64,000 bases of DNA, taken from assembly GCA_027371725.1 (NCBI GenBank), contig DAHXMN010000001.1, positions 400 through 64,399 of the forward strand, in the 5' to 3' direction. Source of the stretch: Candidatus Woesearchaeota archaeon (lineage in GTDB: Archaea; Nanobdellota; Nanobdellia; Woesearchaeales; UBA525). Each line of letters starts with the position of its first letter. Positions within the stretch are counted from its first letter, which is position 1. Below, piece after piece: positions 13,357 through 30,868 of this stretch. The translations under genes were made by a program, and so were the position numbers. Under the pieces are notes generated by a model. The model worked only from the letters and a program-made list of their open reading frames with translations. It was not told the origin of the DNA and searched no databases.

Positions 13357-16305
13357 TTACCGGGAGGTTTGGGTCCTAATGAACTCCTGGAGTTCGGTGC
13401 GGACGAGGAGGCGGACGCCCGGAGCGATGCGCTCGTAGTGCGGTCTGAAATCGCTGTCCGCGAGGATGATGACGAGTCGCTTCCCGTATTGGTTCTTGAG
13501 TTCTGCGAACTTCTTTTCAAGTCGAGATTTGTGCTTCTTGAATCCGAGACCAGTTTCTACCTCTACCGCGATCTCTTTTCCGGCCTTGTTCTTGAAGAGC
13601 AGGTCGACTTTGTCAGTCACGCTCACGTCAACTGCAAGCCCGCGTTTCATGAGTTCGTCTTTGAGGTTTAGAACGATGAACGTATGCTCTGGGCTCTCAA
13701 TGTTGTTGTCCTTAATCCAGCATTCTTCCTGGCGCGGCTTCCCAATCGGCATGAACATTCCTGGCGAGTAGCCTTGATTGGTGAGGAAATTCTTCTCATC
13801 TATGGTGAGATCTGCACCGTAGTAGAGCCCTTGCTTCGGATCAAGGGTGATGTTGACCTCGCGCCGCTCATCGGGAACGACTTTGCTCTCAGATTCGTTC
13901 GGGTTCGTGGTGACCAGAAGGTGCTCTTTCTCGGATGCGATGACGGTGAGTTCCTGGTGGTCGTTGTCCAGAATCAAGATGCCCCTGCCTTGCGTGGCGG
14001 TAAGGAGGTATTCGCGTTCCGGGTTGCTCAGATGGAACGTTCTGACGACCGAATCGATGATCGCGGCTTTCTGGCGGAGGAGGAAGCTGTAGCTGCTGTT
14101 CGCAAGGACTGCGTGTCCCGCGCCGCTGTTGATGAGGTCAGCCACATCCTGCGTGATGAGCAGGAGGCCCATGTTGAACTTTCGGCACGTCTTGACAATC
14201 TCGAAGAGGTAGCTCGCTTCTTCTGTGTGGCTGAGGAGGCTCCACGCTTCGTCCACCACCAGGAGTTTTTTGCCGGGGCGGCGCTTCATGGTCATGTAGG
14301 CGTAGTCCAGGATGAGGAACATGACGACGGGCTTGACTTGCTTGGGCATATCCCCTATGTTGAAGCAGACGAAGTCCTTGCCGTAGTTGATGTTGCTCTG
14401 CTTGTTCAGGAAGCCGAAGACACCCTCGGTGTAGAGGTAGAGGCGGTTGATGAGCGCCCGGTACGTGACCTTCTCAGACTGCGCCGCCTGGGAGTCCATG
14501 CTCACGAGAGTGTGGTACAGGTCGCCCAGGATTGGCGGCTTCTTGTTCTTGTACACGTCAGCCGTGATGCCCTTCTTGGCGTAGGTGACGTTGACTGCCC
14601 GGTCCAGGATGCTCTTCTGGATCTCGCTGAGCTCGCCGAACATGATTCGGAACAAGTCCATGAGCGCCAGGCGTTTTTCGACGTAATCGTGGCCCATGAG
14701 GTCGAGGGGGTTGATGATGGTCGCGCTGGTTCGGCTTATGGTGACGTGCTCGCCGCCACAGGCCTGGACGAGCCCTGCATACTCGCCTTGCGGGTCCACG
14801 ACCGTGACGCACGTGCCGTTCATGAGCTGGCGGCTGATCATGAGCTTGGTGAAGTAGCTCTTTCCTGCACCACTGGTGGCGAGGACGATGCCGTTCGCGT
14901 TGCTCAGGCTGAATAGGTCCTTGATGTAGGGCACCCCGTTCTTGTTCAGGCCGAGGAGGGTTCCGGTCTCCTCCATGGTGAGGAAGGGGCTGGTGCATGG
15001 GAAGAACGCGCTCAGAGCCCCGGTGGTGACGTTGCGTTTGAGGCCGAGCCAATCCTTGCCCAGGGGCATCATGGCTTTGTACGCCGCTGCCTGGCGAAAC
15101 AGGGGCGTTGTCGGGATAATCATGATGCTCTGGAGCTCTGCCTCTACTTTGCGGGTCAGGAGGTCCAGGTCGGCCTTATTCGCGGCTTTACACGCGATTA
15201 AGAGGCTGACATTGAAGAGCTTCTCCTCGCCCTTCTGGAGCGCCTCGAGGACCTTGAGGGTGTCCTTGTACTTAATCTCCAGGGAGGGGTTGACGCTGTG
15301 GTGCTGTTCCTCCGCATACAGGTCGGCTCGTTGCTTCTGGAGCTCCCGGTTCAGGAGGACCATCGTTGATTCGATGGTGAATGGCTCAATCTGGATGCTC
15401 AGGTCGTAGTTCTCATTGCTGCTGATGAGCTTGTCCAGGAAGCCACTTTCCACGAGGCGCGGGTACCCGTCAGCCGCGATGACCCTGATGAGCTGGCCGT
15501 CGACTTGGAGGTGGTCGATGTTGTCCCTGACCCTGCCTGGCGCCAGGAGGTAGTGGAGGCCGGAAACCCCGATCGGAGGCTCCCGGTCCGACGCCCGGTA
15601 GTATCGCTTGAGCATCTCCAGTAGCGCCTTGTCGTTCAGCCGGACGGCGTGCAGGCCGAGCCCTTTGAGTCGGTCAAGGCAGACCCTGCATTGGATGTCC
15701 AAGCTGCTCCGTTCCGGGATGATGAGGTAGAACTCCCGGTTGCGTTGCGTCGCCATCCGGCTCTTCGTGAACGCGGCGAACTCGTCATAGAGCGTCTCGT
15801 TCTTCGTCCGTTTCTTGAGGCTCTCCAGGTAGGGTTCGAGACTGAGCTCTTGCGTCGTCACGATGAACTGGACGGGGAACTCGAGGCTATTCAGGAACTT
15901 CTGGAACCCGATGATAATCGACTCCTGTTCTTCATTCGTTTTGATCCCGAAGTTCAAGGGCGTAATCCGAAGCAGGGCGACCTTCTCTTCGGAGACGATG
16001 GTGTTGTTCTCAATCTTCTTGACCGGGACGAGGCGCTCCATCCGCTTCGTGCCGAGACGGGACTCGCGGAACTGGAGGTATCGGGAGGCGTTCCGCAGCC
16101 AGATGCCGAGGTCGAAGAAGATGAACATCATTCCCAGGACGAAGGGGATGATGGCGAGGCAGAGCTTCAGGTCCATGCTCAGATTGCTCGTCAGGACCAT
16201 CAGGGTGAGGGTGCCGAAGAGGGCTGCCCAGCCGAGTTGGACGAAGGTCAAGCCGAACATGATGCGCTCTTTGTGCTGGAGTTGCTGGGGAATTTCGTAG
16301 GCCAT
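13357..16305 (-). CDS. VirB4/TrbE/TraC-like conjugation ATPase (AAA-like, DUF87-type) with N-terminal TM segments and a C-terminal nuclease-like domain
   Basis: 982 aa. Walker A TSGAGKSYFTKLM, Walker B LLVVDEAWSLL and N-terminal hydrophobic helices. Confidence 0.7.
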   Translation of the reverse strand: MAYEIPQQLQHKERIMFGLTFVQLGWAALFGTLTLMVLTSNLSMDLKLCLAIIPFVLGMMFIFFDLGIWLRNASRYLQFRESRLGTKRMERLVPVKKIENNTIVSEEKVALLRITPLNFGIKTNEEQESIIIGFQKFLNSLEFPVQFIVTTQELSLEPYLESLKKRTKNETLYDEFAAFTKSRMATQRNREFYLIIPERSSLDIQCRVCLDRLKGLGLHAVRLNDKALLEMLKRYYRASDREPPIGVSGLHYLLAPGRVRDNIDHLQVDGQLIRVIAADGYPRLVESGFLDKLISSNENYDLSIQIEPFTIESTMVLLNRELQKQRADLYAEEQHHSVNPSLEIKYKDTLKVLEALQKGEEKLFNVSLLIACKAANKADLDLLTRKVEAELQSIMIIPTTPLFRQAAAYKAMMPLGKDWLGLKRNVTTGALSAFFPCTSPFLTMEETGTLLGLNKNGVPYIKDLFSLSNANGIVLATSGAGKSYFTKLMISRQLMNGTCVTVVDPQGEYAGLVQACGGEHVTISRTSATIINPLDLMGHDYVEKRLALMDLFRIMFGELSEIQKSILDRAVNVTYAKKGITADVYKNKKPPILGDLYHTLVSMDSQAAQSEKVTYRALINRLYLYTEGVFGFLNKQSNINYGKDFVCFNIGDMPKQVKPVVMFLILDYAYMTMKRRPGKKLLVVDEAWSLLSHTEEASYLFEIVKTCRKFNMGLLLITQDVADLINSGAGHAVLANSSYSFLLRQKAAIIDSVVRTFHLSNPEREYLLTATQGRGILILDNDHQELTVIASEKEHLLVTTNPNESESKVVPDERREVNITLDPKQGLYYGADLTIDEKNFLTNQGYSPGMFMPIGKPRQEECWIKDNNIESPEHTFIVLNLKDELMKRGLAVDVSVTDKVDLLFKNKAGKEIAVEVETGLGFKKHKSRLEKKFAELKNQYGKRLVIILADSDFRPHYERIAPGVRLLVRTELQEFIRTQTSR

Positions 16306-16306
16306 G

Positions 16307-18331
16307 TTACATCATCGCTCCAATGTATTTTGCCGCTTGCATCATGCTCTGGGCCCCGTCGCTCATTCCGGACTTGGTCACGATGTGCTTGGCGAGCAGG
16401 AGGAATAGGAGGTCGATCATGAGGAAGCAGGTGATCATGACGACGATCTTGTACCCGGCAAAGAGGGGTAGGCTAATCATCTGGCTGCAGCCGAGGATGA
16501 TGACTGCGTCCAGGAACGTGACGAAGATGCACAGCCCCAGGAGATTCATGATGAGGTGGCCGTAGCTCCGTAGCGGTGGCATGAAGTAGCAGAACACCCC
16601 GATGGGTGCGAAGAGGACGCCGAACGCCACGATGAGGTAGCGCATGGCCAGGAAGAGCATCGTCACCAGCAAGACCAAGGCATACAGCCCGACCAGGAGG
16701 AGTTCCAAGCCGATGTTGCTGATGTTGTCCGCTGTCAGGAGGAAGAACTGCGGATTGACCAGGCTGAGAACTGCCTGGGTCATGAGGCCGCCGATATCGA
16801 CGATGAGTCCGTAGAGGTAGTAGCTGGCTTGGACGAGGACGATCATGATGACGGTGTTTTTGAGCCATTCCTTGGCCATTTCCCGCTTCAGGACGTTGTG
16901 GCCGCTGGTGAGGAACTGGTACCCGGCATAGAGGAACAGGAACCCGTAGAAGAGGCTCAGGCAGTAGACGATGATTACCCAGACGCCCTGGAAGAGGCTG
17001 ATGCTCGGGGAGGCCTCCAATAAGTCCTTTACGAGGCTCAGAAGCGGCTCCAGCGGGGCGTTGATGATGCTCAGGAGGAAGCTGTAGAGCGCCCCTGGGA
17101 GGCAACTGCCGAGGTTTGTGAGGCCACAATCCTCCGCCCGGACCATCGGCAAGGCCAAGAGGACGCCGAGGCCGATTCCGGGGAGCTTCCGCCAGTACTT
17201 ACGGGAAACCCGGTACGCGGCGACCAGGATGCCCGCGATGACGGCCATTTTGAGGATGAAGACCCAATCTACGGTGACGCTGGGCGGGGTGAACGCCGCG
17301 CTGGGAGGGGCTGAGAGGTTCTGGGCGCAGGGCTTGGTCTGGTTCGTGAAGAAGTCCTCAGCCCTGACCGTGCAGTTTGAGGCATTCGGCACGAAGAACG
17401 TCCCGTTGTACCAGCGGAGGTTCTGCGCCGTTTGGACCTCGAGCTTCTCCGCGTGAAGCTCCAGGAGGTAGAAGGGCTTCTTCGTGAAGTTCGCCGTGTA
17501 CACCCATTCCGTGGCGGAGTAGTTGCTTTGCCCCATGCTGAGCCAGACGCTCGTATTCGCATCATGGACCAGGAACGCCTTCGTAGTGCCCGAGTAGTTC
17601 GTGGCTAGGGTGAATGTGGCGTTCAGGGCGTGGCGGTCATACGTCGTGTTGAGGCTGTCGTTCAGGAGGAGGGTGTCCGTCGTGTAGTTTGTCTTGGTCT
17701 TTGGGCAGCGCCAGCAGTACCGGACGCAGACGCCGTTCCGGGTTCGACAGCAGTACTTCTGCCAGGTGTAGTAGTCGTTCTTGATTGTGGCACGGATGCT
17801 CAACTCCTCTCTGATATTCGCGTCAAAGATCAGGATGTTGATCGGGACGACTTTTCCGGTGCCCATCGTGATGTTGTTCGCCTTCGTTGTGAGGGTGCTC
17901 GTGTTCTCGGTGAGGTAGTGGAGTATCTTGCACGTTGCCCCATTGCTCTGCGAAGGATTAGTGTAATTTGCTGGCACCTTGATCCAGTAGCTCGCCTCGG
18001 AACGGACGGCCACCTTGGCCGGACAGTAGCGAGTCTTGTTGAGCAGGACGCTCGGCTGGATTGTCAAGAGGGCGACCCAGGCATCCATGATGACACCCTT
18101 CTGAATTTTAGTATAACCGAACGGCGCATTGTTGACGACGATGCCCTGATTGTAGGCGGCGATGGCTGCGTGGTCCGGGTGACTCGTGTTCGTGTAGATT
18201 AGGTTGGCGATGAGGTCTTCATTCACCGTCAAAGCGGCGAGGCAGTTCGTCTGGTTCTGGAAGTAGCTGCAGTTGAAGGCAGCGGTAGCTGGGACGAAAG
18301 CGAGAAATAAAAGGAGAAAAAGAGGTTTCAT
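16307..18331 (-). CDS. large polytopic membrane protein with a signal peptide and a heavily N-glycosylated ectodomain (VirB6/TrbL-like candidate)
   Basis: 674 aa. Signal MKPLFLLLFLAFVPATAA. About 25 N-x-S/T sequons in the first 350 aa. At least 6 C-terminal TM helices. Confidence 0.6.
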   Translation of the reverse strand: MKPLFLLLFLAFVPATAAFNCSYFQNQTNCLAALTVNEDLIANLIYTNTSHPDHAAIAAYNQGIVVNNAPFGYTKIQKGVIMDAWVALLTIQPSVLLNKTRYCPAKVAVRSEASYWIKVPANYTNPSQSNGATCKILHYLTENTSTLTTKANNITMGTGKVVPINILIFDANIREELSIRATIKNDYYTWQKYCCRTRNGVCVRYCWRCPKTKTNYTTDTLLLNDSLNTTYDRHALNATFTLATNYSGTTKAFLVHDANTSVWLSMGQSNYSATEWVYTANFTKKPFYLLELHAEKLEVQTAQNLRWYNGTFFVPNASNCTVRAEDFFTNQTKPCAQNLSAPPSAAFTPPSVTVDWVFILKMAVIAGILVAAYRVSRKYWRKLPGIGLGVLLALPMVRAEDCGLTNLGSCLPGALYSFLLSIINAPLEPLLSLVKDLLEASPSISLFQGVWVIIVYCLSLFYGFLFLYAGYQFLTSGHNVLKREMAKEWLKNTVIMIVLVQASYYLYGLIVDIGGLMTQAVLSLVNPQFFLLTADNISNIGLELLLVGLYALVLLVTMLFLAMRYLIVAFGVLFAPIGVFCYFMPPLRSYGHLIMNLLGLCIFVTFLDAVIILGCSQMISLPLFAGYKIVVMITCFLMIDLLFLLLAKHIVTKSGMSDGAQSMMQAAKYIGAMM

Positions 18332-18660
18332 CCGACCAGGTATTGCACGACGAGCGGTGCAACCCAGATGATGATGAGGCCCACCACGATGTACCCCGCC
18401 ATGGTCTTGGCGGACTCGCGTTTGGCCGTGTCGTCGCCGCTCATGATGAACGTGACACCCGCAAAGACGAGGAACAGCACGGCAAGGACCGTGGCCGCGT
18501 ACTTCACGAAGTTGTACACCTTCATCACAGGGCTCAATATCTGGTCGAACGTCGCTTGGTCCTGGGGCGAGATCGTCTGATTGAACTCGACCGCCATGAC
18601 GAGCGGCGTGATGCTCAGGAAGAGCATCACCAACAGCAAGGCAGTTTTCATTCTTGGCAC
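18328..18660 (-). CDS. pilin-like small membrane protein (VirB2/TrbC-like candidate)
   Basis: 110 aa with a signal peptide plus two hydrophobic helices. Overlaps the upstream gene (ATGA). Confidence 0.5.
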   Translation of the reverse strand: MPRMKTALLLVMLFLSITPLVMAVEFNQTISPQDQATFDQILSPVMKVYNFVKYAATVLAVLFLVFAGVTFIMSGDDTAKRESAKTMAGYIVVGLIIIWVAPLVVQYLVG

Positions 18661-18838: not shown

Positions 18839-20533
18839 TCATCTTGTGAGCTTAGCTATGAGATTCACAGAATATAATGCCAGAAGATGACGCAAGGGAA
18901 CGCCCCCTCGGGGAGGTTCTCCGCGATCAAACTGTATGTGATTGCCAAGGGGCAATATCACTGCTCCATATTTTTGTTCGGGGAAGTGTTTGTCGACTAG
19001 AGATTTGACCTTCGACAATGCTTCTCTCGGCGTGAAGTGTTGAGAATCTGGCTTAACCAAACAATATTGTTCCTGAAATTTCATCGCTGTAGGTATTCGT
19101 CCTGAGAATGTCCTCTCTACTTGCACCATAAATTCGTTCAGTTTTTCTTCATCCACATCCTTCAGGACTGCCTTGATTTGACTCTGAGTAGGAAGCGCTT
19201 TTTTCATACTGTCTTTTCCTGTTGCATGATGTATGCTCGCTTCCCATCTTATCTTCTTGTTCTGTTTATTCAGTGAGTTAGTGAGCTCGACTCTATAGTT
19301 CCCTTGCTTCAAGTCGGGTACAATCTCTGCAAATGTTGAGTAGATATCACGATTTCGTGATTTCTTAAGAGATGGCTGCTTTTCTCTGAGATTCGCAATT
19401 AGTTTCTCTTTCTCGGGCCGGTGTATAAATGCCTCTGAAGGTGTTCGTTTTTTATGCTCGATAAGTATTGCTCTGGCAAAAGCAGCCGACATCTTTGGGC
19501 ACACCGCATTTCCGACTAGCCGATACTTAGTCGATTCATTGCTTCCTTGAAAGAGATATGTGAGAGGAAACGACATTAAAGCGGCAACTTCTCGAATAGT
19601 TGGCGATCGATATATTTCTGGATGACCATTACGAAGAATCATTGATTCTCTCGACACTACCGATTTGGTCGCCATTACAGTCCTACTCGGTTTTGATTCG
19701 TCTTCTGGGAAGCTCATCCGACCATAGTATCTTGCTTGAAGCTTCTTGTTTCTTGCGTCTTCCCACTCGAAACGAGGTATCGTGGTGTCATAGAAATGAT
19801 CTGTAATCTGGATATTGGAGATAAGGATGCCGTAATTTGGATCTTTAATCTGCGACGCGGTTGAACGTAGGGCATCGAGCACATGTCCAAGAGTGACCCA
19901 GTCCTCTTGCGTCGGAGTCGTCGGGGTTGGTTTGATGAACTGACCACAAATGAATCGCTCTCTTCGTTGAGGAACTCCGAAGTGAACTGCGTTATGGACA
20001 TTCTCAAGAGATTTATCGATTCTCAAAGCAACGTCATTCTCGCTAAAATCAATTTTTAGGGCGCGAAGAGTCTTGTTGTCCAGCCCTAGCATCTTGAATG
20101 TGTACTCATCTTTGACATAATTGCGAGAATTTGGCACGTTCTCCATCAACCAATACTTCAATCGAGAGCCTTTCTTGTGCTTCTTAAGAGCGACAATCTG
20201 CAGATACTTCTCTATTAGTTGTATGCCAATCGTTTTGTTGGCGTTGCCTGCACGGTTTGATCCTGAAAATGCTACGCAAGGAGGACTGCCGACTATGACA
20301 TCAACATCGGGAATCATATCATGGGCGATGATTTGTTCAGGACTAAGTTCGAGTACGTCTGTGAGAAGTGTTTGCGCTCCCGGATGATTAAGCTTGAATG
20401 TATTTATGGCTGGTTTCCAATAATCCAGACCAAACTTCACTTCGAAGCCCATCTGTCTGAATCCCTCTGAGAAACCGCCCGCCCCGCAGAAGAAGTCGGC
20501 AACCGTCAGTTTATCTTCGGTCCTTTGCACCAT
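18839..20533 (-). CDS. DNA (cytosine-5)-methyltransferase with a roughly 200-aa C-terminal extension
   Basis: Motif I FCGAGGFSEGF, motif IV GSPPCVAFSGSN and motif VI LMENVPN. Confidence 0.85.
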   Translation of the reverse strand: MVQRTEDKLTVADFFCGAGGFSEGFRQMGFEVKFGLDYWKPAINTFKLNHPGAQTLLTDVLELSPEQIIAHDMIPDVDVIVGSPPCVAFSGSNRAGNANKTIGIQLIEKYLQIVALKKHKKGSRLKYWLMENVPNSRNYVKDEYTFKMLGLDNKTLRALKIDFSENDVALRIDKSLENVHNAVHFGVPQRRERFICGQFIKPTPTTPTQEDWVTLGHVLDALRSTASQIKDPNYGILISNIQITDHFYDTTIPRFEWEDARNKKLQARYYGRMSFPEDESKPSRTVMATKSVVSRESMILRNGHPEIYRSPTIREVAALMSFPLTYLFQGSNESTKYRLVGNAVCPKMSAAFARAILIEHKKRTPSEAFIHRPEKEKLIANLREKQPSLKKSRNRDIYSTFAEIVPDLKQGNYRVELTNSLNKQNKKIRWEASIHHATGKDSMKKALPTQSQIKAVLKDVDEEKLNEFMVQVERTFSGRIPTAMKFQEQYCLVKPDSQHFTPREALSKVKSLVDKHFPEQKYGAVILPLGNHIQFDRGEPPRGGVPLRHLLALYSVNLIAKLTR

Positions 20534-20651
20534 TCTGATCCACTAATTCTTAAACGATCTCCTAATCCCTTTATTTAAATGTTGTCACAGTCGATTCATT
20601 TTTAAAGATGCTGAGAATCAGAAGCCGCATCTGACGCAAGTGTTTGGACGC

Positions 20652-21563
20652 TTATTTCCAGTGCTTTTTGATATAGGCTGTTGCTTCTTTCGTGTTAAGT
20701 TGCTGAGTGGAATTGCCCGTACGTATGAAGAAGTGGGTGGTATCTTTGTTCTCGACATACACTGGTTCGGACGCTTTTTTGACTTGTACTGATGCGACTT
20801 TCTTCCCGTCATAATCTTCAAATGATGTCGAGATAAGCTGTGCATGCTCTTTACCAATATAGTTGCTGACGATTTCCCCTATTTTTAGCTGGAAACCATC
20901 CTCGTTCTGCTTTTTCAAGAGAGAGATGTCCTTTTCCAGTCCCAAGATATTCTTGTCATCATCTATCCCGATTATTAGTCTTCCACCGTCAGCATTCATG
21001 AACCCGGCGATGGTCTTCGCAATGGAGACAATCAAATCCTTGTTCGGTTTGTTTTGTTTATAGTCCCATTCTATAGACGATTTGAATTCGACTGTCTCAT
21101 CCTCGCGTAATGCTTCGAGGCCGGTTTTCTTCTCTCGAATCATTTCTCCTGCGAGTTTTGATGCTTCATTCATCTTTTGTTCCAGAAGAAGCATGAAATT
21201 CTCAGATGTTCTGTACTCCTCGATGAGTAGCTGTAACTCACTCAGGCCAGCTATGGAGTATTCCTCCGCAATCTTCTTGACCTCATTCATGTCCTTAAGG
21301 ATGAGCATATCGCCCGTCTCAGCGACCGCAATTGAGGTAATTAACCAGAGATCCGCGTCAGAAAAACTGTCTGTATTCAGCAAAGGATAGCGTTTGATTT
21401 CTTTTCGTTTCAGTCTCTTCACAAATGCAAGAGACATGCAAAGCATGAAAATGTGCTTTGCTTTCATATTCTGGAAGATGAATCCTTGCTCAAGGTCGTC
21501 GTATATCTTACGAGCGTCCCTGGTTATGTTCAGGTTCCTTCCAAAAAGTTCTCTTAGTTCCAA
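20652..21563 (-). CDS. AlbA_2 (Schlafen-like) domain protein with a DndE-like N-terminal region
   Basis: The C-terminal half (...ADGGRLIIGIDDDKN...FFIRTGNSTQ) is an AlbA_2 core. The N-terminal half (ITRDARKIYDDL...HIFMLCMSL) resembles, from memory, the DndE pattern (TGLxPNLLCRIGFCxSL). Overlaps the SMC-like gene. Confidence 0.5.
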   Translation of the reverse strand: MELRELFGRNLNITRDARKIYDDLEQGFIFQNMKAKHIFMLCMSLAFVKRLKRKEIKRYPLLNTDSFSDADLWLITSIAVAETGDMLILKDMNEVKKIAEEYSIAGLSELQLLIEEYRTSENFMLLLEQKMNEASKLAGEMIREKKTGLEALREDETVEFKSSIEWDYKQNKPNKDLIVSIAKTIAGFMNADGGRLIIGIDDDKNILGLEKDISLLKKQNEDGFQLKIGEIVSNYIGKEHAQLISTSFEDYDGKKVASVQVKKASEPVYVENKDTTHFFIRTGNSTQQLNTKEATAYIKKHWK

Positions 21564-23545
21564 CTCCGCACCTCAGTCACACCATGGCTCATCACGAAAC
21601 GAGATTCCTGAGCTATACGCTTAGAAAGCAAGTCTCTGATTGTGGCAGTATATTCCTGATCCTTCATCAGAAGGACAACCTGTGTTCCTTTGAGATAGTC
21701 TGGCAACTTCCGCGCCACATTCTCTCTTTGTTCATTATCTATGTTTGCTAGGGGCGTGTCGATGAATACTGGGAACTTGAATCCGGAGACCTCGCTCAAA
21801 GCAGCAATGAATGACAACAATAGGAGCTGTTTCGGACCACTTGCGAGATTGTGCATCCAGTTTGTTCCTTTGCCGTCGGTAAGTCTGAGGTCATAATCAT
21901 GATTGATTGTGAACTCAGTATATTTCTCTTTGTCCCAATGGAGTGTTTTGAAGTATTCCCATGTCTTCTCTTGCACTTGTTCTCTGACTTCCTGTAGAAT
22001 CTCTACCTCAATTTTATTCAGTGCATTTGATGCGCGATCAATAAACTCAGCGGTGACCTTCTTTCTTTCTCCGCCTTTCTTCTTCACACCTTCTTGATTG
22101 AGACTTTGTCGTAGTTGACTCAGTTGTCCAGTTCGTAGATTTATGGCGGCAGTCAATCTCGAGACGGAAGCTATTTGAGACTCTCTGTTTGTCATAAGAG
22201 ACTCGCGTTGATTTGTCTGTTGAATTATGTCGTCTTCTTTAGTGTCCTTAAGATTCTTTGATATTTCTTGAAGATCTTTATCGTGCTTTTTATTAAGTTC
22301 CACTAGTTTTTCGAGTTTCTTGTTCAGAGTGGCTATCTCGTTGAGTGATTGAGGGATTTCGCGCTCTAGAATATCGGTGATTCTGAATTTACCTTCTGAA
22401 AGCGTGGCCTTGAATTCATTGAAATTATTCTCTCTAATCTTTTCTTTTAAGAGAGTCACACATTCTTGGTCGTGAGTAGTGTTGAGCGTCCTCCCGCAGA
22501 CGCATTTCTTTTGTCGCAACAGTTCTTCAAGATATTTGTTGTCGATATTTGGCTGGAACTTATCCCTCTCTAATTCAGCATTTATTAGATTGATAAAGTT
22601 CTGCAACGCACCAGATGCGATGGCCAGAGGAGCGGATGATATGGCAATCGTTCTCAACTGTTTCTTGATTTGATCTATTTCTTGGTTATTGGAAGCAATC
22701 TTTTCACGGATATCGCGTTCTTGTCTCGCCCATTCTCGTATGAGTGGGATGTTATAGTCAGAGAGGAACTTCTCGATTCTGTCAATCTCCTCCTTTGCTT
22801 TGGCGATTTCTCCTTTTCGAGTTTCAATAGCTTCCGTATTTCTCGCTATATACTCCTCCGCCTCTTCAATCTCATGGTTCAATTTCGCCATTCCTGCATC
22901 GTATTCGTCGTCTTTATCGGAGGTCCATATCTGATCTCGGACTTTCTGGAGATGCTCTATCGCCAGCTTGACCTGTTTGATTTGAGAGGTTCTTTCGATT
23001 GCTTGGCGGATGTTCTCGTTGTTATTGAATGAGAAGTGCTTTTCGAGCTTCTCACCTTCAAACATGAAAAAGAGGTGGATTTCCCTCGGCAATATGCTGT
23101 TTATTACATTAGTAAAATTATACTCGGGAACGGGTCTACAGTCGTTCTTTTCCCATTCCATTATTGAGCCGGTCGGCTCTTTTAAGATGTGCATCTTGTT
23201 ATTGAGCTTCTGGTACATTGCATCCCGTTTAATCACATAAATGGGCAAATCCGTTTCATCGTCGTTCAAGGTGATTTCAACATAGACGCTATCAATCTCC
23301 TTCTCCTTCATATCGTGTTGTCTGGCGACAGTAAATGCGGGCAAAGTGTGGTCATGACCTGAACTGGTCTCCTCACCATACAAACACCAAGCAATAGCTG
23401 AGAGGAAAGTGGTCTTACCAACGTCAGATTTAGCTTCAATCACAGAAAACTTGTTTTTTGCCTCTTTCTTGAACGTTACAACTATTGGCTTCTCCGGATT
23501 GCTGAACGGACGGAAGTTCTTGAGTTTGATTTCAGAGATCCACAT
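21554..23545 (-). CDS. DndD/SbcC/SMC-like coiled-coil ATPase
   Basis: 663 aa. N-terminal Walker A KSDVGKTTFLSAIAWCLYGE, a long coiled-coil middle, and a C-terminal ABC-type signature/Walker B region ...FPVFIDTPLANID. Confidence 0.7.
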   Translation of the reverse strand: MWISEIKLKNFRPFSNPEKPIVVTFKKEAKNKFSVIEAKSDVGKTTFLSAIAWCLYGEETSSGHDHTLPAFTVARQHDMKEKEIDSVYVEITLNDDETDLPIYVIKRDAMYQKLNNKMHILKEPTGSIMEWEKNDCRPVPEYNFTNVINSILPREIHLFFMFEGEKLEKHFSFNNNENIRQAIERTSQIKQVKLAIEHLQKVRDQIWTSDKDDEYDAGMAKLNHEIEEAEEYIARNTEAIETRKGEIAKAKEEIDRIEKFLSDYNIPLIREWARQERDIREKIASNNQEIDQIKKQLRTIAISSAPLAIASGALQNFINLINAELERDKFQPNIDNKYLEELLRQKKCVCGRTLNTTHDQECVTLLKEKIRENNFNEFKATLSEGKFRITDILEREIPQSLNEIATLNKKLEKLVELNKKHDKDLQEISKNLKDTKEDDIIQQTNQRESLMTNRESQIASVSRLTAAINLRTGQLSQLRQSLNQEGVKKKGGERKKVTAEFIDRASNALNKIEVEILQEVREQVQEKTWEYFKTLHWDKEKYTEFTINHDYDLRLTDGKGTNWMHNLASGPKQLLLLSFIAALSEVSGFKFPVFIDTPLANIDNEQRENVARKLPDYLKGTQVVLLMKDQEYTATIRDLLSKRIAQESRFVMSHGVTEVRSWN

Positions 23546-23732
23546 CTTTGTGCTCCTTCTGGCTGTATCCGTCCGCCCACTGTTTGTAGGAGTCGGTGTA
23601 TCTTCCTTTGGCCGCCGAGAGGTTCTTTAATTCATTCTCAAGAACATCGAGCAGAAACGATTTCAAATGCTCGCTTTCGTCTAATTCGGAGATTTTCCTT
23701 GTGATTATCTTATTCAGTTCTGATCGTCTCAT
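23532..23732 (-). CDS. small helical protein (66 aa) embedded in the operon
   Basis: Its start overlaps the helicase stop (ATGA at 23729-23732) and its 3' end overlaps the SMC start. Confidence 0.45.
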   Translation of the reverse strand: MRRSELNKIITRKISELDESEHLKSFLLDVLENELKNLSAAKGRYTDSYKQWADGYSQKEHKDVDL

Positions 23733-25873
23733 TGTGGTACGCTCAACAGGGCTTGATATTTAGTCAGATTATTCTTTACGGTCAAGGGGTTCCTTGCTGA
23801 CTGCAGGAACTCGTCAACCCTCAATAACTCCCGCCTTAACGCTGAACGCTCTGACTCCGATATTTTTAAAGGTATTCTTTCCCAAGGGAAAACCAAGACG
23901 TCATGTATAATCGAGAACTCTTTTCCCGGCGAGCGTCTCAGTATTCTCCCTCTTCTTTGAATAAACTCTACCGGATTCCCGCTACTCGCCAAAATAATTG
24001 CTCTTTCAATTCCTGGGACGTCGATACCTTCATCTAGGACCTTCATAGCAATCACTGCTTGATATTTGTCCTCCTGGAACAACCTTATGATTTCTTGCCT
24101 ATATTCAAGGCTTTCTTCATGAGTTATCTGATGAGCCCTAATTTTCTTGTCGTGCAGTATCTCCTTGACCCGTTCTATCTGTTTATCGGAACAATAGATT
24201 AGTGTTCGTTTAATATCTGGTATTGAAGAAAGGATTTTCTCAAAAGCAGCCCATTTTGCCTCAGCATTAACGAGTATTCTTGACCGCTCAAGAATCATCA
24301 TGAATATTTTATCGTCGACTTTTCCCTTGTTGGCGTGTATTGCTCGTGCTATCCGAGTTGAAAGCGACTCATATTTTTCTCTTTCTTCATCAGTCAATAT
24401 AGCAATTTCCGCATAATATTCGTATTCGGTCAGAAACTCAGGTATGGCCTGTTTCATGCTGAATTCAAAACATATCCCTTCAAAGTAGTCGAGTAGTTCC
24501 TGTGTCCCTTCGGGGTCCATGTATATCTCTGGTGTGGCGCTCAGACCAAGACGACCGATAAACTCCGGAAGCATCCCTTTCCTTGTCTCAGGTGCCCACG
24601 CGTGATGTACTTCGTCGCAGACCAATAGCTTGGTCTCTTCAGTTTTATTCACGAAATCTATTAAATCCTTCGAACAGAATGAATCATATGTTGCTACAGC
24701 AAAAAGATTCTCGGCTCTTCCTAGACGAAGCTTCAGAATCCCCGTCTTCAAGTCGGCAGCCCACACGGATTTGTTCTGCATGACTGGAATTATGTTTTTG
24801 AAACCTTCCGCCTCTAGGTTTTCTATCCATTGGGAGACGAGTAGCTGTGTTGGTGCAACAATCACTACCAACGACTTAGGATATCTTTTCAGGAAGGCGT
24901 CTATGGCGCGTAGAGCAGTGAATGTCTTTCCCGTTCCAGTCGCCATCTTCAATATGCCCTTAAAATTCTTCGACCAGTTCCTGATGGCCTCTTCTTGGTA
25001 CTCCCTGAGCTCCCTTCTCGAAGGTTCTTTCTGCTCCCGTCTAAATGAGTATCTCCCTTTGTACTCGTCCTTGGCTCTCCTCAGACAGTATTCTGAGAGC
25101 GTGTTGAATTCTTCTTCGGTCTTCGGTGATCGCTGTATTAGTTGTTTTTTGAAAGCATCACTAATCGGATAAACGCGCATATTCCCTGTCAAGTCATTCC
25201 AGAGCTCTTCGAAGTCCTCAAGATCGTGTTTTAGGTGTCGCTCTTTGTCGGATTCCACCCACCCTAGGTAGACGTGGAATTTTTCGTGGTTAAATAACCA
25301 TCCAGATGCGGTCTCGTTATCTGACCCGAAAAACTCAATCATGTTTCCGGAGGAATCTTCAAGAATGCCATATTTCTGGTGTTCTATTCCTTTGTTGCCA
25401 CCAGGAACTGCTATGCGAATTTCCAGACGACCACTTCTTACCATCCATCCAAGCATCTTTAGATGATCTTTCTTTAATTCATCTTCGCTGCAATCAATTT
25501 CGGTGATGATGCTCTTTTCAGCTTCACTGATTGCTCTTGCTATTGTCTCCGCGTCGACTTCACTCAGCTTCACACTCGTAATCAGTTGCATACGACCGCC
25601 ATTCTTGATGAACTCAGCCATCCCTTTTGCTGCTACGGCCAGAGAGCTAGAAGAGAAGAACCCTGAGACGCGCTTGTAGGTTACTGCCCGGGACAAAGCA
25701 GGAATATAGAATGAGTCCAGAACGTCTTCTTTCGCAGAGTCATAGACTCCTTTGCTTTCCAAGCCTAAATCCCTGAGGCTCATGCTCGAGCTAATTGATT
25801 CGCTTTTAAAAAGGTATCTCGATAAATTCCAGTTTACGCACACGTTCAACAGCAAAATGGGCGTATTTTGCAT
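23729..25873 (-). CDS. fusion of a phospholipase-D (HKD) nuclease domain and an SF2 helicase (ResIII/DEAH-like)
   Basis: HKD motif HQKYGILED. Helicase motif I ATGTGKTF, motif II LLVCDEVHHAW, motif III SATP and motif VI QRRGRILRR. Confidence 0.75.
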   Translation of the reverse strand: MQNTPILLLNVCVNWNLSRYLFKSESISSSMSLRDLGLESKGVYDSAKEDVLDSFYIPALSRAVTYKRVSGFFSSSSLAVAAKGMAEFIKNGGRMQLITSVKLSEVDAETIARAISEAEKSIITEIDCSEDELKKDHLKMLGWMVRSGRLEIRIAVPGGNKGIEHQKYGILEDSSGNMIEFFGSDNETASGWLFNHEKFHVYLGWVESDKERHLKHDLEDFEELWNDLTGNMRVYPISDAFKKQLIQRSPKTEEEFNTLSEYCLRRAKDEYKGRYSFRREQKEPSRRELREYQEEAIRNWSKNFKGILKMATGTGKTFTALRAIDAFLKRYPKSLVVIVAPTQLLVSQWIENLEAEGFKNIIPVMQNKSVWAADLKTGILKLRLGRAENLFAVATYDSFCSKDLIDFVNKTEETKLLVCDEVHHAWAPETRKGMLPEFIGRLGLSATPEIYMDPEGTQELLDYFEGICFEFSMKQAIPEFLTEYEYYAEIAILTDEEREKYESLSTRIARAIHANKGKVDDKIFMMILERSRILVNAEAKWAAFEKILSSIPDIKRTLIYCSDKQIERVKEILHDKKIRAHQITHEESLEYRQEIIRLFQEDKYQAVIAMKVLDEGIDVPGIERAIILASSGNPVEFIQRRGRILRRSPGKEFSIIHDVLVFPWERIPLKISESERSALRRELLRVDEFLQSARNPLTVKNNLTKYQALLSVPQ

Positions 25874-26540
25874 CGAGTTCGCAACCGAGGAATTGTCTGC
25901 CTGTCTGGCGTGCCGCTACGGCTGTGCTGCCGACCCCCATGAATGGGTCTAAAACCACATCTCCGGGCTTGCTAGAGGCCTCTATGAGGCGTTTAAGCAC
26001 CGCCAGGGGTTTCTGAGTGGGGTGAACTGAGCCGCCTTCTGGGCTGCGGAGTCGTTCTGCCCCGGTCAGGATTGGGGTGATGAAGAGGTTCTTCATGGCC
26101 CCTTGGCTGGGGAAGTTGAAGGTAATCTTGTTGAGCTTGACCTTCTCGTTGACGGCGTAGACGATGTATTCGTTGGCGAAGACCCAGTTGGTCTTGCTCA
26201 GGCGGGGTGGCGGGTTGGTCTTGCTCCAAACGAGGAGGTTGCGGAAGAACCAGGCCTCCTGGAAGATGCGCATGTAGATGGGGATTTGTTCGGTGCTGCA
26301 GAACACGTAGATCTGCCCGGTCGGCTTCAGGACGCGCTTGAGCTCCTTCATGACCGGGACGGGGTCGAAGCCATAGTCCCAGTCGCCGAAGTCCTTCCGG
26401 ATATGCCGTCCATCGTAGACGAGGTTTTGTTTTCTGGAGATGTTGTAGGGTGGGTCGGTCACGACGAGATCGACGCTGTTGTCAGGCAGTTCTTTGAGAT
26501 ATTCGAGGCAATCCATGCAGGCGATGGTGTTCAGTTTCAT
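25806..26540 (-). CDS. beta-class DNA methyltransferase (N6-adenine or N4-cytosine; DPPY type)
   Basis: DLVVTDPPYNI near the N-terminus. Its 3' end overlaps the helicase start. Confidence 0.8.
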   Translation of the reverse strand: MKLNTIACMDCLEYLKELPDNSVDLVVTDPPYNISRKQNLVYDGRHIRKDFGDWDYGFDPVPVMKELKRVLKPTGQIYVFCSTEQIPIYMRIFQEAWFFRNLLVWSKTNPPPRLSKTNWVFANEYIVYAVNEKVKLNKITFNFPSQGAMKNLFITPILTGAERLRSPEGGSVHPTQKPLAVLKRLIEASSKPGDVVLDPFMGVGSTAVAARQTGRQFLGCELDAKYAHFAVERVRKLEFIEIPF

Positions 26541-26604
26541 GCCCTGTAACGGGTTGCACTTTCAGAAATTCGGGACTCGGAAAATGTACATCAAAAAAGA
26601 AGTT

Positions 26605-26736
26605 TTAGTCACGGCCCTCATTAGCACCATCTTCGAACCCGTCCTGGTAGAGCTTGTTTAGGACGGTGTCGAGCTCTTCCTTCGTCTTGGCCGTCTTGAC
26701 CGCTTTCCGATACCCCTGTAAGTACTTGTCCGCCAT
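26605..26736 (-). CDS. tiny conserved ORF (43 aa), copy 1
   Basis: MADKYLQGYRKAVKTAKTKEELDTVLNKLYQDGFEDGANEGRD. A 41/43-identical paralogue is at 33222..33353. Confidence 0.45.
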   Translation of the reverse strand: MADKYLQGYRKAVKTAKTKEELDTVLNKLYQDGFEDGANEGRD

Positions 26737-26748
26737 GTCATTCACCCC

Positions 26749-26877
26749 CTATTCTCGCAATAGATCGTCGAAATCGACGTAGTCATGCGGGTTCTCCACG
26801 TTCCGGAACTGGCGCAGCCGATCATCCCGGAAGAACCGCTTCCCTTTCATTTCCACTATTGGTAGTTGGGTTACCAT
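26749..26877 (-). CDS. tiny conserved ORF (42 aa), copy 1
   Basis: MVTQLPIVEMKGKRFFRDDRLRQFRNVENPHDYVDFDDLLRE. A paralogue with one substitution is at 33367..33495. Confidence 0.45.
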   Translation of the reverse strand: MVTQLPIVEMKGKRFFRDDRLRQFRNVENPHDYVDFDDLLRE

Positions 26878-27424
26878 AGGTTATCGCCTCCTTAGAAAGC
26901 CCGAGCCTGAACGAGGCGATTATTCTGTCTCGGAGAATGTATGACATCTGAAGCCACTGGTCAACCGCGCGCAGCGCATTTAAGCCGATCTCACCTTCTT
27001 CGTGAGTGGCGCTTCACATCCTCAAGGGCAACGGGAGGGCGCTCGATCACGACGTCGTCCGGTTCGCGTTAGCGTACACGCCATGCCTCCTCGTAGATTG
27101 TGCAGACGCGGCCGACCCATACCAACACCCAGACACAGATGTTGCGACGTTCCTTGCAGTTCATGTGGTTCAGGCGGAACTCCTGTACCGGCTCCGAGAC
27201 ATCCTCCGCGCCCTGCCGCAGACCGTGCGGCGGCTCGGCGTCAAACGTGTCGTCATCACGCAATTCACGCGCCTTTTCCATTATCACGATGAGGCGGAGA
27301 ACGCGGATATTTACGAGGAAGTGTGGCGGCGGATCGGCGAAGCTGCAAAGGAGCTCGACGTCGTTGTCGGCGTTCCGGAGGGATCAGTCCATGAGGCGTA
27401 TGCGGAACGCCTCGGAGGGTTAAG

Positions 27425-27745
27425 ATGGGACACACGGTCAGCAGCCAACGACACGTCACCGACGTCCTCCTCGAAGAGTTCAAGGCCTATGGGAGCAGCT
27501 TGCGACAGGATGAGCGCGTCATGTATGAGCGTCTTGTCAAGCAGGCGTTGAAACACGTGGGGAGCGTCACGTACACGAGCAGCACCGAAGCATGGGCGTT
27601 CGTCCTCCTCAGCATGATGCTCGAACAAGAAAAACGGATTAGCGCCTTGGAGGGACAGAATGAAAGCGTGGTTCATGGACGCGTACCGACACCAGAGCAA
27701 CCTCATCCTCTGGTTCAAGACGCCGGACGAGAACATACGACTTGA
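27425..27745 (+). CDS. hypothetical helical protein (106 aa); may be frameshift-fused to the upstream ORF 27006..27551
   Basis: Plausible K/E-rich sequence. Overlaps the PolB start. Confidence 0.35.
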   Translation: MGHTVSSQRHVTDVLLEEFKAYGSSLRQDERVMYERLVKQALKHVGSVTYTSSTEAWAFVLLSMMLEQEKRISALEGQNESVVHGRVPTPEQPHPLVQDAGREHTT

Positions 27746-29831
27746 GCGACCACTCCGCACCACCATCTACCTCGAAGCAACCCAACAAGCAGAAGAATAC
27801 CTCACTCACCAGACAATCCCGTTTCGTCGTGTCCGGCGACAGAACTATCGCAGGGAATGGCAGGACGTCTTCGAGATTGTCGTCCCTCATCTGGCCATGT
27901 TCGAGCGCTTCGTCCGATGGATCGAAGAAGGTACGAAGCACCAGGTCGCCCTCTACAACGCAGACATCACCCCGGAACAACGCTTCCTTTACGAGCACGG
28001 CCTCAGCGCCGGAACAACCGTCCTCCTCGACGGCGAGGAGTTCCACGTTCTTGACTCCAACGAAGCGGCCCCTTTCACCGTCGCACGGCTCACCGTCAGA
28101 ACTGACAAGCCCGTGGCGGCGGCAGAAGATACGCCGATACGCGGAATAGAACTAAACGAGACCCGGTTCGACGGGGAAGAACACTCGGTTCTTGAACGGT
28201 TCGCGGCGGCGTTTGTTCGTCTTGATCCGGACATCATCATCCTCGAACACGGCTACGCAGTCCTACCACACCTTGTTCGCCGCCTAGCAGCCCACAAGCT
28301 CTCAGTCGCGTTTCACCGTTGGGACGACACGCCAATCACTTACAAGGGTGGCAGGACGTTCTTCACCTACGGCAGGGTCCGTTACCAAGACTACGCCCTC
28401 GTCCTCCACGGACGGTTCCTCATTGACACGATGACGACCGTGGGAAGCACGTGCTCGCCGGATGGCATCCTCGAACTCTGCCAGCTCAGCGGGGTCCGGT
28501 TTCCGCAGGTCTGCGCCCGGAGCTTCGGAGCAGCCTTCCAAGGCGCACTCGTCAAGCAACTCCTTGCCCACCACTTCCTCGTTCCGTTCAAAGAGAAGCC
28601 CATCGACGAGCCCTTGAGCTTCATCGACCTTGTCAAAGGCGATCGAGCAGGCCAGTACCTTGATCCGGTCCTTGGCTTCCATCAGAACGTGGCAGAAATC
28701 GATTTCTCCTCGATGTATCCGTGGCTCATGTTCAACTACAACATCAGCGCTGAAGCCCTCCAATCAAAAGAAGAACCCCTCGTCGATGTACCAGGGCTTC
28801 CGCTCACGGTCTCGCACCGGCATAAAGGACTCGTCCCGCTGGCGATTAAGCCGTTCTTGGAGCGGCGTATGGCGTACAAGCGCACCCCAACCCCTGTTCA
28901 CAAGGAGCGTGCAGCTGCGCTGAAATGGGTCCTCGTGAGCAGCAACGGCTACCTGCGTTTCCGCGAGTTCAAGCTCGGCCTCCACACGAGCCATATGGCG
29001 CTCTGCGCCTACGCCCGCGAAACACTCCTCGCCTCGATGCGGCTCGCCGAAGAACAAGGATTCCGAGTCCTGCACGGCATCGTCGACAGCCTCTACCTCA
29101 CCAAACCAGGCATGACTGAGGAAGACGTCCGACGCTTCGCCAAAGACCTCGAAATCCTGACGGGCATCCCGGTCAGCATGGACGGCATCTTCAAATGGGT
29201 CGTCTTCCTCCCCAGCATCAACGACGACGACCGGGCACTCCCGGCACGGTACTACGGCGTCTTCACGGATGGCGAGATCAAAGCGCGTGGCCTTGAAGTC
29301 CGACAACTCAGCAGCGCACGCGTCGTCCAAGAATTCCAACACGAAATCCTCCAAGCCTTGAGCACCTGCTCCACCGCCGAGGAGATCAGAGAGGCGGCGC
29401 CCTTGCTCTGTCGGTTGCTTCGGCGGTTGCTCGGACGACTCGACCACGTCCCCCCGGAGTGGCTGACAATAAAGGTCTGTCTGAGCAAGACCGAGTACAA
29501 GCACAACGTCCCGCAAAAAGCCGTCGTCGAAGCCTACGCGAAACGAGGAATCCCTATCCAGCCTGGCCAATTCGTTCGCTACCTCTACCAAGAATCAGGT
29601 CCAGTCATCCCCGAGGACTACACCGGACCACCCGACGCAGACCGCTACGAAGCCCTATTGACCCGCGCCCTCTTCATCGTCCTCCAGCCCTTCGGTTTCA
29701 GCCGCGAATGGATTAGGGACCACACCCAACAAAGCCGACAGACGAGAGTCCCCGAATATGGAGAGATATTCGATAATACATTAAAGCTGCACGACCTTCC
29801 TGGTGCCTCATGTGCGGACGCTTCACCCTGA
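27660..29831 (+). CDS. family-B DNA polymerase, compact and apparently exonuclease-deficient
   Basis: Motif A EIDFSSMYPWLM (DxxSxYP), motif B-like LVSSNGYLRF, motif C HGIVDSLYL (a YGDTDS variant) and KxRG as IKARG. No recognisable ExoI DxE. Confidence 0.65.
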   Translation: MKAWFMDAYRHQSNLILWFKTPDENIRLERPLRTTIYLEATQQAEEYLTHQTIPFRRVRRQNYRREWQDVFEIVVPHLAMFERFVRWIEEGTKHQVALYNADITPEQRFLYEHGLSAGTTVLLDGEEFHVLDSNEAAPFTVARLTVRTDKPVAAAEDTPIRGIELNETRFDGEEHSVLERFAAAFVRLDPDIIILEHGYAVLPHLVRRLAAHKLSVAFHRWDDTPITYKGGRTFFTYGRVRYQDYALVLHGRFLIDTMTTVGSTCSPDGILELCQLSGVRFPQVCARSFGAAFQGALVKQLLAHHFLVPFKEKPIDEPLSFIDLVKGDRAGQYLDPVLGFHQNVAEIDFSSMYPWLMFNYNISAEALQSKEEPLVDVPGLPLTVSHRHKGLVPLAIKPFLERRMAYKRTPTPVHKERAAALKWVLVSSNGYLRFREFKLGLHTSHMALCAYARETLLASMRLAEEQGFRVLHGIVDSLYLTKPGMTEEDVRRFAKDLEILTGIPVSMDGIFKWVVFLPSINDDDRALPARYYGVFTDGEIKARGLEVRQLSSARVVQEFQHEILQALSTCSTAEEIREAAPLLCRLLRRLLGRLDHVPPEWLTIKVCLSKTEYKHNVPQKAVVEAYAKRGIPIQPGQFVRYLYQESGPVIPEDYTGPPDADRYEALLTRALFIVLQPFGFSREWIRDHTQQSRQTRVPEYGEIFDNTLKLHDLPGASCADASP

Positions 29832-30759: not shown

Positions 30760-30868
30760 GCACTCGAAAGCCAACGTCCCGAGCCGGTTGTAGCCGTACC
30801 TCTCGAAGACGTGCTTGGGCATCGTGATTAAATTTATATAGGCCGTTAGATTTTATGTTCTTGGGGGG

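Follow-up and report, generated by a model that had tools for sequence, protein, structure and literature searches.

A probable methylation-coupled PbeABCD (CxC ABC-ATPase-DndE) system in an integrated mobile element of a Woesearchaeota archaeon

INTRODUCTION

We analyzed a 64,000-nucleotide stretch of a Candidatus Woesearchaeota archaeon (assembly GCA_027371725.1, contig DAHXMN010000001.1, positions 400 to 64,399), referred to as the window, in which a gene cluster on the minus strand (18839-26540) encodes the components of a PbeABCD system. This four-gene system was named in Haloterrigena jeotgali (Natrinema thermotolerans) A29 by Xiong et al. 2019 (PMC6459918). In that strain, in which PbeB and PbeD comprise 66 and 152 aa, respectively, all four genes were needed, and the replication of viral DNA was halted in a phosphorothioate (PT)-dependent manner without visible DNA degradation (PMC6459918). 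The same study classified 58% of the PbeAC loci as "solitary" and found methyltransferase (MTase) genes close to 155 of 320 solitary pbeAC loci (PMC6459918). Rakesh et al. 2024 subsequently equated PbeABCD with the "CxC ABC-ATPase-DndE" systems of Krishnan et al. 2020 and described PbeA as an HKD endoDNase with a superfamily 2 (SF2) helicase, PbeB as a small and rapidly evolving protein, PbeC as an ATP-binding cassette (ABC) ATPase of the CxC clade, and PbeD as a DndE cognate (PMC10853773, section 16). In some of these neighborhoods, C5 and/or permuted N4 cytosine methylases replace the PT enzymes (PMC10853773, section 16, Fig. 4A-iv), and a gene with an MTaX1 domain is frequently, though not universally, found with the methylase-coupled form (PMC10853773).

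With a probability of roughly 75%, we consider the locus of the window to be a methylation-coupled PbeABCD system with a functional unit at 18839-25783. This unit is a 7-kb low-GC cassette composed of pbeA, pbeB, pbeC, pbeD fused to an AlbA_2 domain (pbeD::AlbA_2), and a dedicated C5 MTase. All four PbeABCD components are found at the locus, as is the feature that characterizes the methylase-coupled CxC-DndE subtype, namely, a cytosine methylase in the conserved neighborhood in place of PT genes. The functional hallmark in Xiong et al. 2019, i.e., adjacent dndCDEA genes and PT dependence, was not found among the called genes and large ORFs of the window.

RESULTS

Gene layout of the locus

The initial annotation of this region listed six open reading frames (ORFs) on the minus strand of 18839-26540, all of which we found at the same coordinates. 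These ORFs and their features are as follows.

25806-26540, minus strand: N6_N4 MTase, 244 aa
23729-25873, minus strand: pbeA ORF, 714 aa (from M31, 23729-25783, 684 aa)
25316-25381, minus strand: HKD catalytic motif of PbeA (HQKYGILED...GSDNE), invariant alignment columns
23532-23732, minus strand: pbeB, 66 aa, highly charged
21554-23545, minus strand: pbeC, 663 aa
22496-22504, minus strand: CxC (Cys-Val-Cys), putative zinc hook of PbeC, residues 348-350 of 663, midway along the coiled coil (regular expression on the translation)
20652-21563, minus strand: pbeD::AlbA_2, 303 aa, TTG start
21129-21563, minus strand: PbeD domain (DndE cognate, two ribbon-helix-helix [RHH] units), residues 1 to ~145 of 303
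20652-21104, minus strand: AlbA_2/Schlafen-like domain, C-terminal fusion on PbeD, residues 154-303
20534-20651, minus strand: intergenic gap between pbeD and the C5 MTase gene, exactly 118 nt
20572-20579, minus strand: TTTAAATA element, 39 to 46 nt upstream of the C5 MTase ATG, read from the sequence
18839-20533, minus strand: C5 MTase, 564 aa
19448-20533, minus strand: catalytic domain of the C5 MTase, residues 1-362; motifs FCGAGG, PPC, ENV, QRR, and GNAV all present
18839-19447, minus strand: C-terminal domain of the C5 MTase, ~200 aa, residues 363-564

The overlapping gene junctions of the initial annotation stand for pbeA/pbeB (4 nt), pbeB/pbeC (14 nt), and pbeC/pbeD (10 nt), and its 118-nt gap is exact. 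The remaining overlap, 68 nt between the N6_N4 MTase gene and pbeA, holds only with the ATG at 25873. Since PbeA homologues comprise 680-695 aa and PADLOC PbeA models first align at residues 38-49, pbeA probably starts at M31 (25783), so that 22 nt separate it from the N6_N4 MTase gene, as they do in the European Nucleotide Archive gene call. Stand-alone PbeD proteins support the TTG start of pbeD at 21563, since residues 1-134 of the 303-aa protein can be aligned to them from end to end. In the public record (L003 10001-10816), this protein is called from M33 and, with 271 aa, is too short. The order PbeA, small gene, PbeC, and PbeD was found again in every close relative examined, and at about 55 of 80 distant genome loci PbeC comes after PbeA. 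From this recurrence, we conclude that the gene set is no chance arrangement. No direct or inverted repeats of at least 10 nt were found around the 7-kb cassette. A scan for sigma-70 promoters and terminators gave counts at the level of shuffled sequences; such a bacterial-type scan is uninformative for an archaeon.

The core proteins are PbeA, PbeB, PbeC, and PbeD

The encoded proteins were compared with three profile libraries, namely, PADLOC-DB hidden Markov models (HMMs), Pfam, and NCBIfam. (i) PbeA matched the PADLOC model PbeA PDLC02707 (E value of 2.9e-218, 725 bits, residues 39-699 against model positions 6-668 of 672), NCBIfam dnd_restrict_1 (2.1e-115), NCBIfam phospholipD_antiphage (NF042964) over residues 44-354 (6.4e-25), and Pfam ResIII and Helicase_C, and its PDB sequence matches were XPB/Rad25 only. 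In an alignment with 26 homologues that were 39-64% identical, the residues H135, K137, D143, G153, S154, and N156 are invariant, and so are the helicase motifs MATGTGKT, DExH, SAT, and QRRGR; the window protein has all of these residues, and its helicase motifs are intact. Judged by its sequence, PbeA is a single-HKD nuclease of the phospholipase D (PLD) superfamily fused to an XPB/Rad25-like SF2 helicase, and the presence of one HKD motif per chain implies dimerization for activity. (ii) PbeB aligns with genes for 63-70 aa at the equivalent position in loci L001 and L084-L086 and agrees in position and size (66 aa) with PbeB of H. jeotgali; it matched no family model of Pfam, PADLOC, or NCBIfam. 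(iii) PbeC matched PADLOC PbeC PDLC02710 over its full length (2.2e-150), the top DndD model following at 1.2e-47, as well as Pfam AAA_23 and SMC_N. It scored 153.9 bits against NCBIfam DndD, under the equivalog cut-off of 245.85. PbeC is thus predicted to be a DndD-like ABC ATPase whose coiled coil of ~400 residues bears a zinc hook at its apex; the CxC motif defines the clade of that name (PMC10853773). (iv) The N-terminal part of the 303-aa protein (residues 21-136) matched NCBIfam TIGR04062, "DNA phosphorothioation-associated protein 4" (dnd_assoc_4, which equals PbeD), and Pfam PF27807 (DNA_S_mod_dnd_assoc_4) is attached to this protein and its relatives in precomputed annotation.

The component types proposed in the initial annotation were thereby borne out, namely, a beta-class MTase, a fusion of a PLD/HKD domain with an SF2 helicase, a DndD-like ATPase, and a DndE-like N terminus followed by AlbA_2. 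So was its suggestion of a Dnd-derived module without DndA and DndC, neither of which was found among the called genes and large ORFs of the window. Its proposal that this is the most likely undescribed system in the window has to be abandoned, because the PADLOC HMMs assign both large core proteins over their full length to PbeA and PbeC and NCBIfam and Pfam assign PbeD. These models place the core in the named PbeABCD system (PMC6459918), and the linkage to methylases has also been published (PMC10853773).

A rare fusion of PbeD with an AlbA_2 domain

Residues 154-290 of the 303-aa protein matched Pfam SLFN_AlbA_2 (3.8e-21). Among the matches of a homologue search, the combination of PF27807 and PF04326 occurred in four other clusters only. 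The relatives of the fusion protein include (i) P0003, encoded at locus L001 (65% identical); (ii) P0005 (38% identical), which adjoins dndB-C-D-E; and (iii) P0049, encoded at locus L002 of an Actinomycetota metagenome-assembled genome (MAG) (32% identical), where PbeA is without a PLD domain and is preceded by a gene for a MutH-domain protein. These contexts indicate that PT-linked, methylase-linked, and MutH-linked versions can all carry the fusion. The fusion is rare and is the main difference between this locus and the described examples; AlbA_2 and Schlafen go unmentioned in the 2024 survey of CxC-DndE systems (PMC10853773).

A second AlbA_2 (Schlafen-like) gene is located at approximately 780-1662 on the plus strand, in a low-GC patch (0.39), and its product shares only 30% identity with the AlbA_2 part of the PbeD fusion. 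This gene appears to be divided between two ORFs that overlap (405-1175 and 1135-1662), possibly through a frameshift.

A C5 MTase dedicated to the Pbe cassette

Residues 10-356 of the C5 MTase matched Pfam DNA_methylase (2.8e-38), in agreement with the initial annotation, and the protein also matched NCBIfam dcm (6.6e-32, above the cut-off) and PADLOC MTase_II (5.7e-51). No Pfam or PDB relative was found for its C-terminal domain. When 1.84 billion representative proteins were scanned exhaustively with HMMER, this domain was retrieved in 31 clusters only. In 9 of 10 members scanned against Pfam, it follows DNA_methylase, short matches being gene fragments. The C5 MTase with this domain adjoins a Pbe cassette in all nine independent contexts inspected, namely, the window, L001, L025 (Methanosarcinales MAG), L083 (Nanoarchaeota MAG), L084, L085, L086, L088/L089, and L090, of which L088/L089 and L090 were reached via the MTase, at 35% and 28% identity, respectively. 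The consistent adjacency to Pbe, along with the small total number of clusters, indicates that the C5 MTase is a dedicated Pbe partner. In addition, its gene shares the low-GC composition of pbeA to pbeD. The C-terminal domain is a candidate for MTaX1; the paper by Krishnan et al. 2020 is said to have defined both MTaX1 and the CxC clade. The TTTAAATA element may be an archaeal TATA box and hence part of a possible separate C5 MTase promoter.

Related loci

The closest named relatives of PbeA belong to the Methanosarcinales (52-54% identity), and the A-B-C-D order with overlapping genes is kept in L001, L084-L086, L088, and L090. The loci L084 (Methanolobus psychrotolerans MBKP01000006), L085 (Methanococcoides seepicolus), and the metagenomic L086 resemble that of the window in their PbeA (52-54% identical) and PbeD (42-44% identical) and in the succession of PbeA, a 63-aa gene, PbeC, PbeD, and a C5 MTase of 541-543 aa that has this C-terminal domain as well, without dnd genes. 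They differ in that the MTase gene is convergent and has Vsr, in some cases along with a MutH-domain protein, beside it, and in that PbeD is without AlbA_2 and no N6_N4 MTase is encoded upstream. PbeABCD of H. jeotgali has the same gene order and component types, and the PADLOC PbeA and PbeC models cover the window proteins over their full length. However, the H. jeotgali genes adjoin dndCDEA and are PT dependent, whereas the present locus has a linked C5 MTase and no dnd genes were found; moreover, PbeD of H. jeotgali is a stand-alone protein of 152 aa, as compared with the 303-aa fusion. The CxC-DndE systems with cytosine methylases (PMC10853773) share with this locus the HKD-SF2 helicase, the small protein, the CxC ABC ATPase, the DndE cognate, and a methylase instead of PT enzymes. 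No AlbA_2/Schlafen domain is part of their description, which also includes a gene with an MTaX1 domain.

No dnd-type domains (PAPS_reduct, DndB, DndE, desulfurase) were detected among the called genes and large ORFs of the 64-kb window. Neither were dnd-type Pfam domains (DndB, PAPS_reduct/DndC, DndE) found in the loci carrying the C5 MTase with the C-terminal domain, and L084-L086, L088, and L090 are without dnd genes within 7-9 kb. A megablast search of the locus against the PLSDB plasmids gave no match. A search of genome contigs by PbeC alone returned no confirmed relative and was redone with the PbeA alignment.

Two further observations concern the neighbors of Pbe cassettes. (i) MutH-domain proteins of 464-491 aa recur beside them (L085 14074-15468, L086 13433-14857, and L002 4323-5798). 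The PbeA of L002 has only 456 aa, without the PLD domain and next to the MutH gene, which suggests a swap of the nuclease from an HKD to a MutH type. (ii) Downstream of the distant Pbe cassette of Natronomonas aquatica (L050), whose haloarchaeal PbeA is ~34% identical, there is a 659-aa ORF (13301-15280) in which a weak cytidine/dCMP-deaminase-like region is joined to six DNA gyrase A C-terminal beta-propeller repeats; this architecture is unusual beside a defense locus, and an N6_N4 MTase follows the ORF. A search for dnd genes in L050 found none.

Other candidate systems

The initial annotation pointed to similarities with Lamassu, DISARM, and Type III restriction-modification (R-M), which we found to be superficial. 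The best 25 of the 56 PADLOC matches of the ATPase (E values of 2.2e-150 to 1e-32) are PbeC or DndD models throughout, and its CxC hook and ~400-aa coiled coil fit the DndD/CxC clade and not SMC (PMC10853773); on this basis, Lamassu was rejected. For DISARM, none of DrmA, DrmB, and DrmC was among the PADLOC matches listed, and the C5 MTase matched DrmMII with 9e-27, as compared to 5.7e-51 for MTase_II. Type I and III R-M systems share with this locus a helicase-nuclease fusion, a protective MTase, and the distinction between self and nonself by DNA modification; however, they use a PD-(D/E)xK nuclease instead of HKD and a Mod/HsdS reader instead of the presumed ABC ATPase/RHH pair, and the C5 MTase found here is Type II-like. 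Assignment to Type III was rejected on the basis of the HKD nuclease and of the N6_N4 MTase, a 244-aa CcrM-like protein that is compositionally foreign to the cassette. A Dnd modification module was also rejected, with the ATPase below the DndD cut-off and neither DndC nor DndA found in the called genes and large ORFs of the window.

The N6_N4 MTase is probably outside the cassette

The sixth gene encodes a member of Pfam N6_N4_Mtase (2.8e-44) in which DPPY (residues 29-32) precedes FxGxG, the beta-class order. The 244-aa protein is CcrM-like, and its best PADLOC models are Type II or orphan MTases. In the initial annotation, two MTases flank one gene set; the different chemistries of the two stand, but the flanking of a single set is doubtful, as the N6_N4 MTase is backbone-like and not conserved in relatives. 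Its gene has a GC content of 0.55 and a third-codon-position GC content (GC3) of 0.73, as compared to a GC of 0.42-0.45 and a GC3 of 0.44-0.57 for the cassette genes, and resembles in this respect the backbone genes for PolB (GC3 of 0.71), TFIIB (0.72), and VirB4 (0.82). The compositional boundaries of the cassette are at ~25,800 and ~18,800. In L001, which is most closely related to the cassette (PbeA 63% identical), an unrelated gene ends where pbeA begins, and the N6_N4 MTase was found in no close relative and with weak matches (24-36% identity) in 7 of 87 other loci. Because of its backbone composition and lack of conservation in relatives, this MTase is probably outside the Pbe cassette, and its sequence features suggest that it is probably a gene of the mobile-element backbone; the cassette may be transcribed by read-through from it.

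Alternatively, this MTase could be the cognate modifier in a five-gene operon with pbeABCD, the C5 MTase being a second or independent marker. It is co-directional with pbeA, at a distance of 22 nt or overlapping, with no intervening promoter evident; permuted N4 methylases have also been reported with CxC systems (PMC10853773), and the N6_N4 MTase of L050 lies downstream of a Pbe locus, a distant one. Nevertheless, we regard this alternative as unlikely, given the difference in GC3, the other upstream gene in the nearest relative, and the lack of this MTase in all close relatives. Furthermore, the first 105 nt of the gene and ~400 nt upstream of it are duplicated at 33051-33563, in a neighboring element remnant, which fits a backbone gene, and small CcrM-like MTases (~38% identity) are very common orphans of plasmids and phages (at least 5000 plasmid and 2002 phage records).

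Mobile element and genomic context

The cassette is carried by an integrated element, for which the following features were identified.

8715-30630, no strand assigned: integrated mobile element, ~21.9 kb, bounded by 17-nt direct repeats CCGGGCGGGGCTATTAT
8715-8731 and 30614-30630: CCGGGCGGGGCTATTAT repeats, the first at the 3' end of tRNA-Gln
8655-8727: tRNA-Gln (CTG)
8910-10253: tyrosine integrase
13357-16305: VirB4/TraC-like ATPase, 982 aa
18328-18660: TrbC/type IV secretion system (T4SS)-pilin-like gene, 110 aa
27660-29831: family-B DNA polymerase (PolB)

The element also encodes a TFIIB homologue and an SRAP protein, and its segment 13357-18660 additionally a 674-aa protein with a T4SS-pilin-like segment. 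Together, 13357-18660 and 27660-30469 look like a conjugation-like module plus a self-replication module. A degenerate third copy of CCGGGCGGGGCTATTAT is present at ~36044-36058, 5.4 kb beyond the second. The repeat copies, the related end sequences, and the integrase indicate a tandem array of one integrated element and a 5.4-kb remnant. Blocks of 80-91% identity connect 26435-26945 with 33051-33563, 30475-30628 with 35904-36058, and 8845-8906 with 30700-30761. The 26435-26945 block includes the beginning of the N6_N4 MTase gene (105 nt) and small ORFs upstream of it; the remainder of the gene seems to have been lost from the remnant. Ordinary chromosomal housekeeping genes are found from ~35 kb on. 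The host has a GC content of ~60-65%, and the housekeeping proteins (35000-56000) have isoelectric points of 5.8-6.2 and an aspartate-plus-glutamate fraction of 0.11-0.13; because of this lack of acidity, a salt-in haloarchaeon is an improbable host. We conclude that the cassette was horizontally acquired, its closest relatives being in the Methanosarcinales.

In the element backbone, a 346-aa ORF (10768-11808, minus strand, GC of 0.40) without a Pfam or PADLOC match may be a further cargo gene. A look-up for the 467-aa ORF at 5059-6462 gave no record.

DISCUSSION

We infer the following mode of action for the locus. The C5 MTase, probably transcribed from its own promoter, would mark resident DNA with 5-methylcytosine (m5C), and its C-terminal domain is the best candidate for a physical link between modifier and scanner. 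PbeC, as an ATP-driven coiled-coil ABC dimer with a CxC zinc hook, and PbeD, as a double-RHH reader, would scan DNA and read its modification state. Unmarked incoming DNA would then engage PbeA, whose XPB-like motor and dimerized HKD site may nick or cleave the DNA or block the replication of the invader. PbeB would serve as a small regulator and was essential in the one system tested, that of H. jeotgali (PMC6459918). The AlbA_2 domain on PbeD may add a nucleic-acid-binding or a second nuclease module. The need for the four pbe genes, modification dependence, and replication arrest have been demonstrated solely for the PT-linked H. jeotgali system (PMC6459918).

Several points weigh against this interpretation. 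(i) Seven of 10 loci with the C-terminal domain encode Vsr, the usual companion of Dcm-type methylases, beside the MTase, and some encode a MutH-domain protein; the window has neither. (ii) A functional role of the N6_N4 MTase is possible, given that its gene is co-directional and only 22 nt upstream of pbeA. (iii) The role proposed for AlbA_2 in the cassette is speculative. (iv) The dnd genes could be located elsewhere in the genome, beyond the 64-kb window. (v) The one Pbe system examined by experiment is PT linked and requires PT, and DNA cleavage was not observed in it (PMC6459918).

Among the other explanations, an abortive-infection mechanism has been proposed comparatively for CxC-DndE (PMC10853773, section 16): PbeB would restrain the HKD nuclease and/or the Schlafen-like domain until removed by a viral factor, upon which self nucleic acids would be cut and the cell would die, methylation being subsidiary. 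The tested system showed no degradation of viral DNA (PMC6459918), which is compatible with this mechanism, and Schlafen-type domains, including those of the structures matched here, are tRNA/RNA nucleases in eukaryotic antiviral proteins. We nonetheless find it doubtful, since a PT-modified virus escaped the tested system, i.e., self and nonself were discriminated on DNA (PMC6459918), and since R-M-like logic would account for a dedicated MTase and for Vsr in relatives. Equally tentative is a scanner-directed form of R-M, in which the C-terminal domain would dock the C5 MTase on PbeC-PbeD, the scanner, instead of a recognition domain within the MTase, would pick the methylation targets, and the Schlafen-like domain would act as an RNA- or single-stranded-DNA-directed second effector or sensor. 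If true, this mode, with its back-up nuclease, would be one not shown for any R-M system and would parallel a proposal made for phosphorothioation.

Less probable still is that the cassette is a PT-dependent Pbe served by dndCDEA elsewhere in the genome, the nearby MTases being unrelated orphan or Type II enzymes. The only experimentally studied PbeABCD needs PT (PMC6459918), the PbeD::AlbA_2 relative P0005 adjoins dndB-C-D-E, and the known sequence is restricted to the 64-kb window. Against these stand the absence of dnd-type domains from the called genes and large ORFs of the window, the position of the C-terminal-domain C5 MTase beside Pbe in nine of nine contexts and its cassette-like low GC, and the closest relatives (L084-L086, L088, and L090), which are devoid of dnd genes at the distances given above. 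Finally, the location of the cassette as cargo between conjugation-like genes and PolB, within an att-bounded element at tRNA-Gln, would suit an addiction or competition module that stabilizes the element or excludes rivals rather than conferring host immunity, which is very unlikely to be its main role, as the Methanolobus and Methanococcoides relatives sit among ordinary chromosomal genes, and which would in any case be compatible with, and not exclusive of, methylation-coupled PbeABCD.

New in this study are the definition of a Pbe-specific C-terminal MTase domain, the rare PbeD::AlbA_2 fusion, the probable placement of the N6_N4 MTase outside the cassette, and the mobile-element context. 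The classification is unchanged, in that the locus belongs to a family already described, in the methylase-linked form that has been published, and the value of these data is incremental. Two groups share the questions of whether base methylation, instead of phosphorothioation, serves PbeABCD as the self mark and of whether DNA is cut at all. With its 7 kb, five genes, and catalytic motifs that are all intact, the locus is a compact test case for both. The C-terminal domain, found beside Pbe in nine of nine contexts and in a total of 31 clusters, is a simple bioinformatic marker of the methylase-linked subfamily and a candidate interaction domain, and PbeD::AlbA_2 represents a prokaryotic instance of a Schlafen-type domain within DNA-modification-based immunity.

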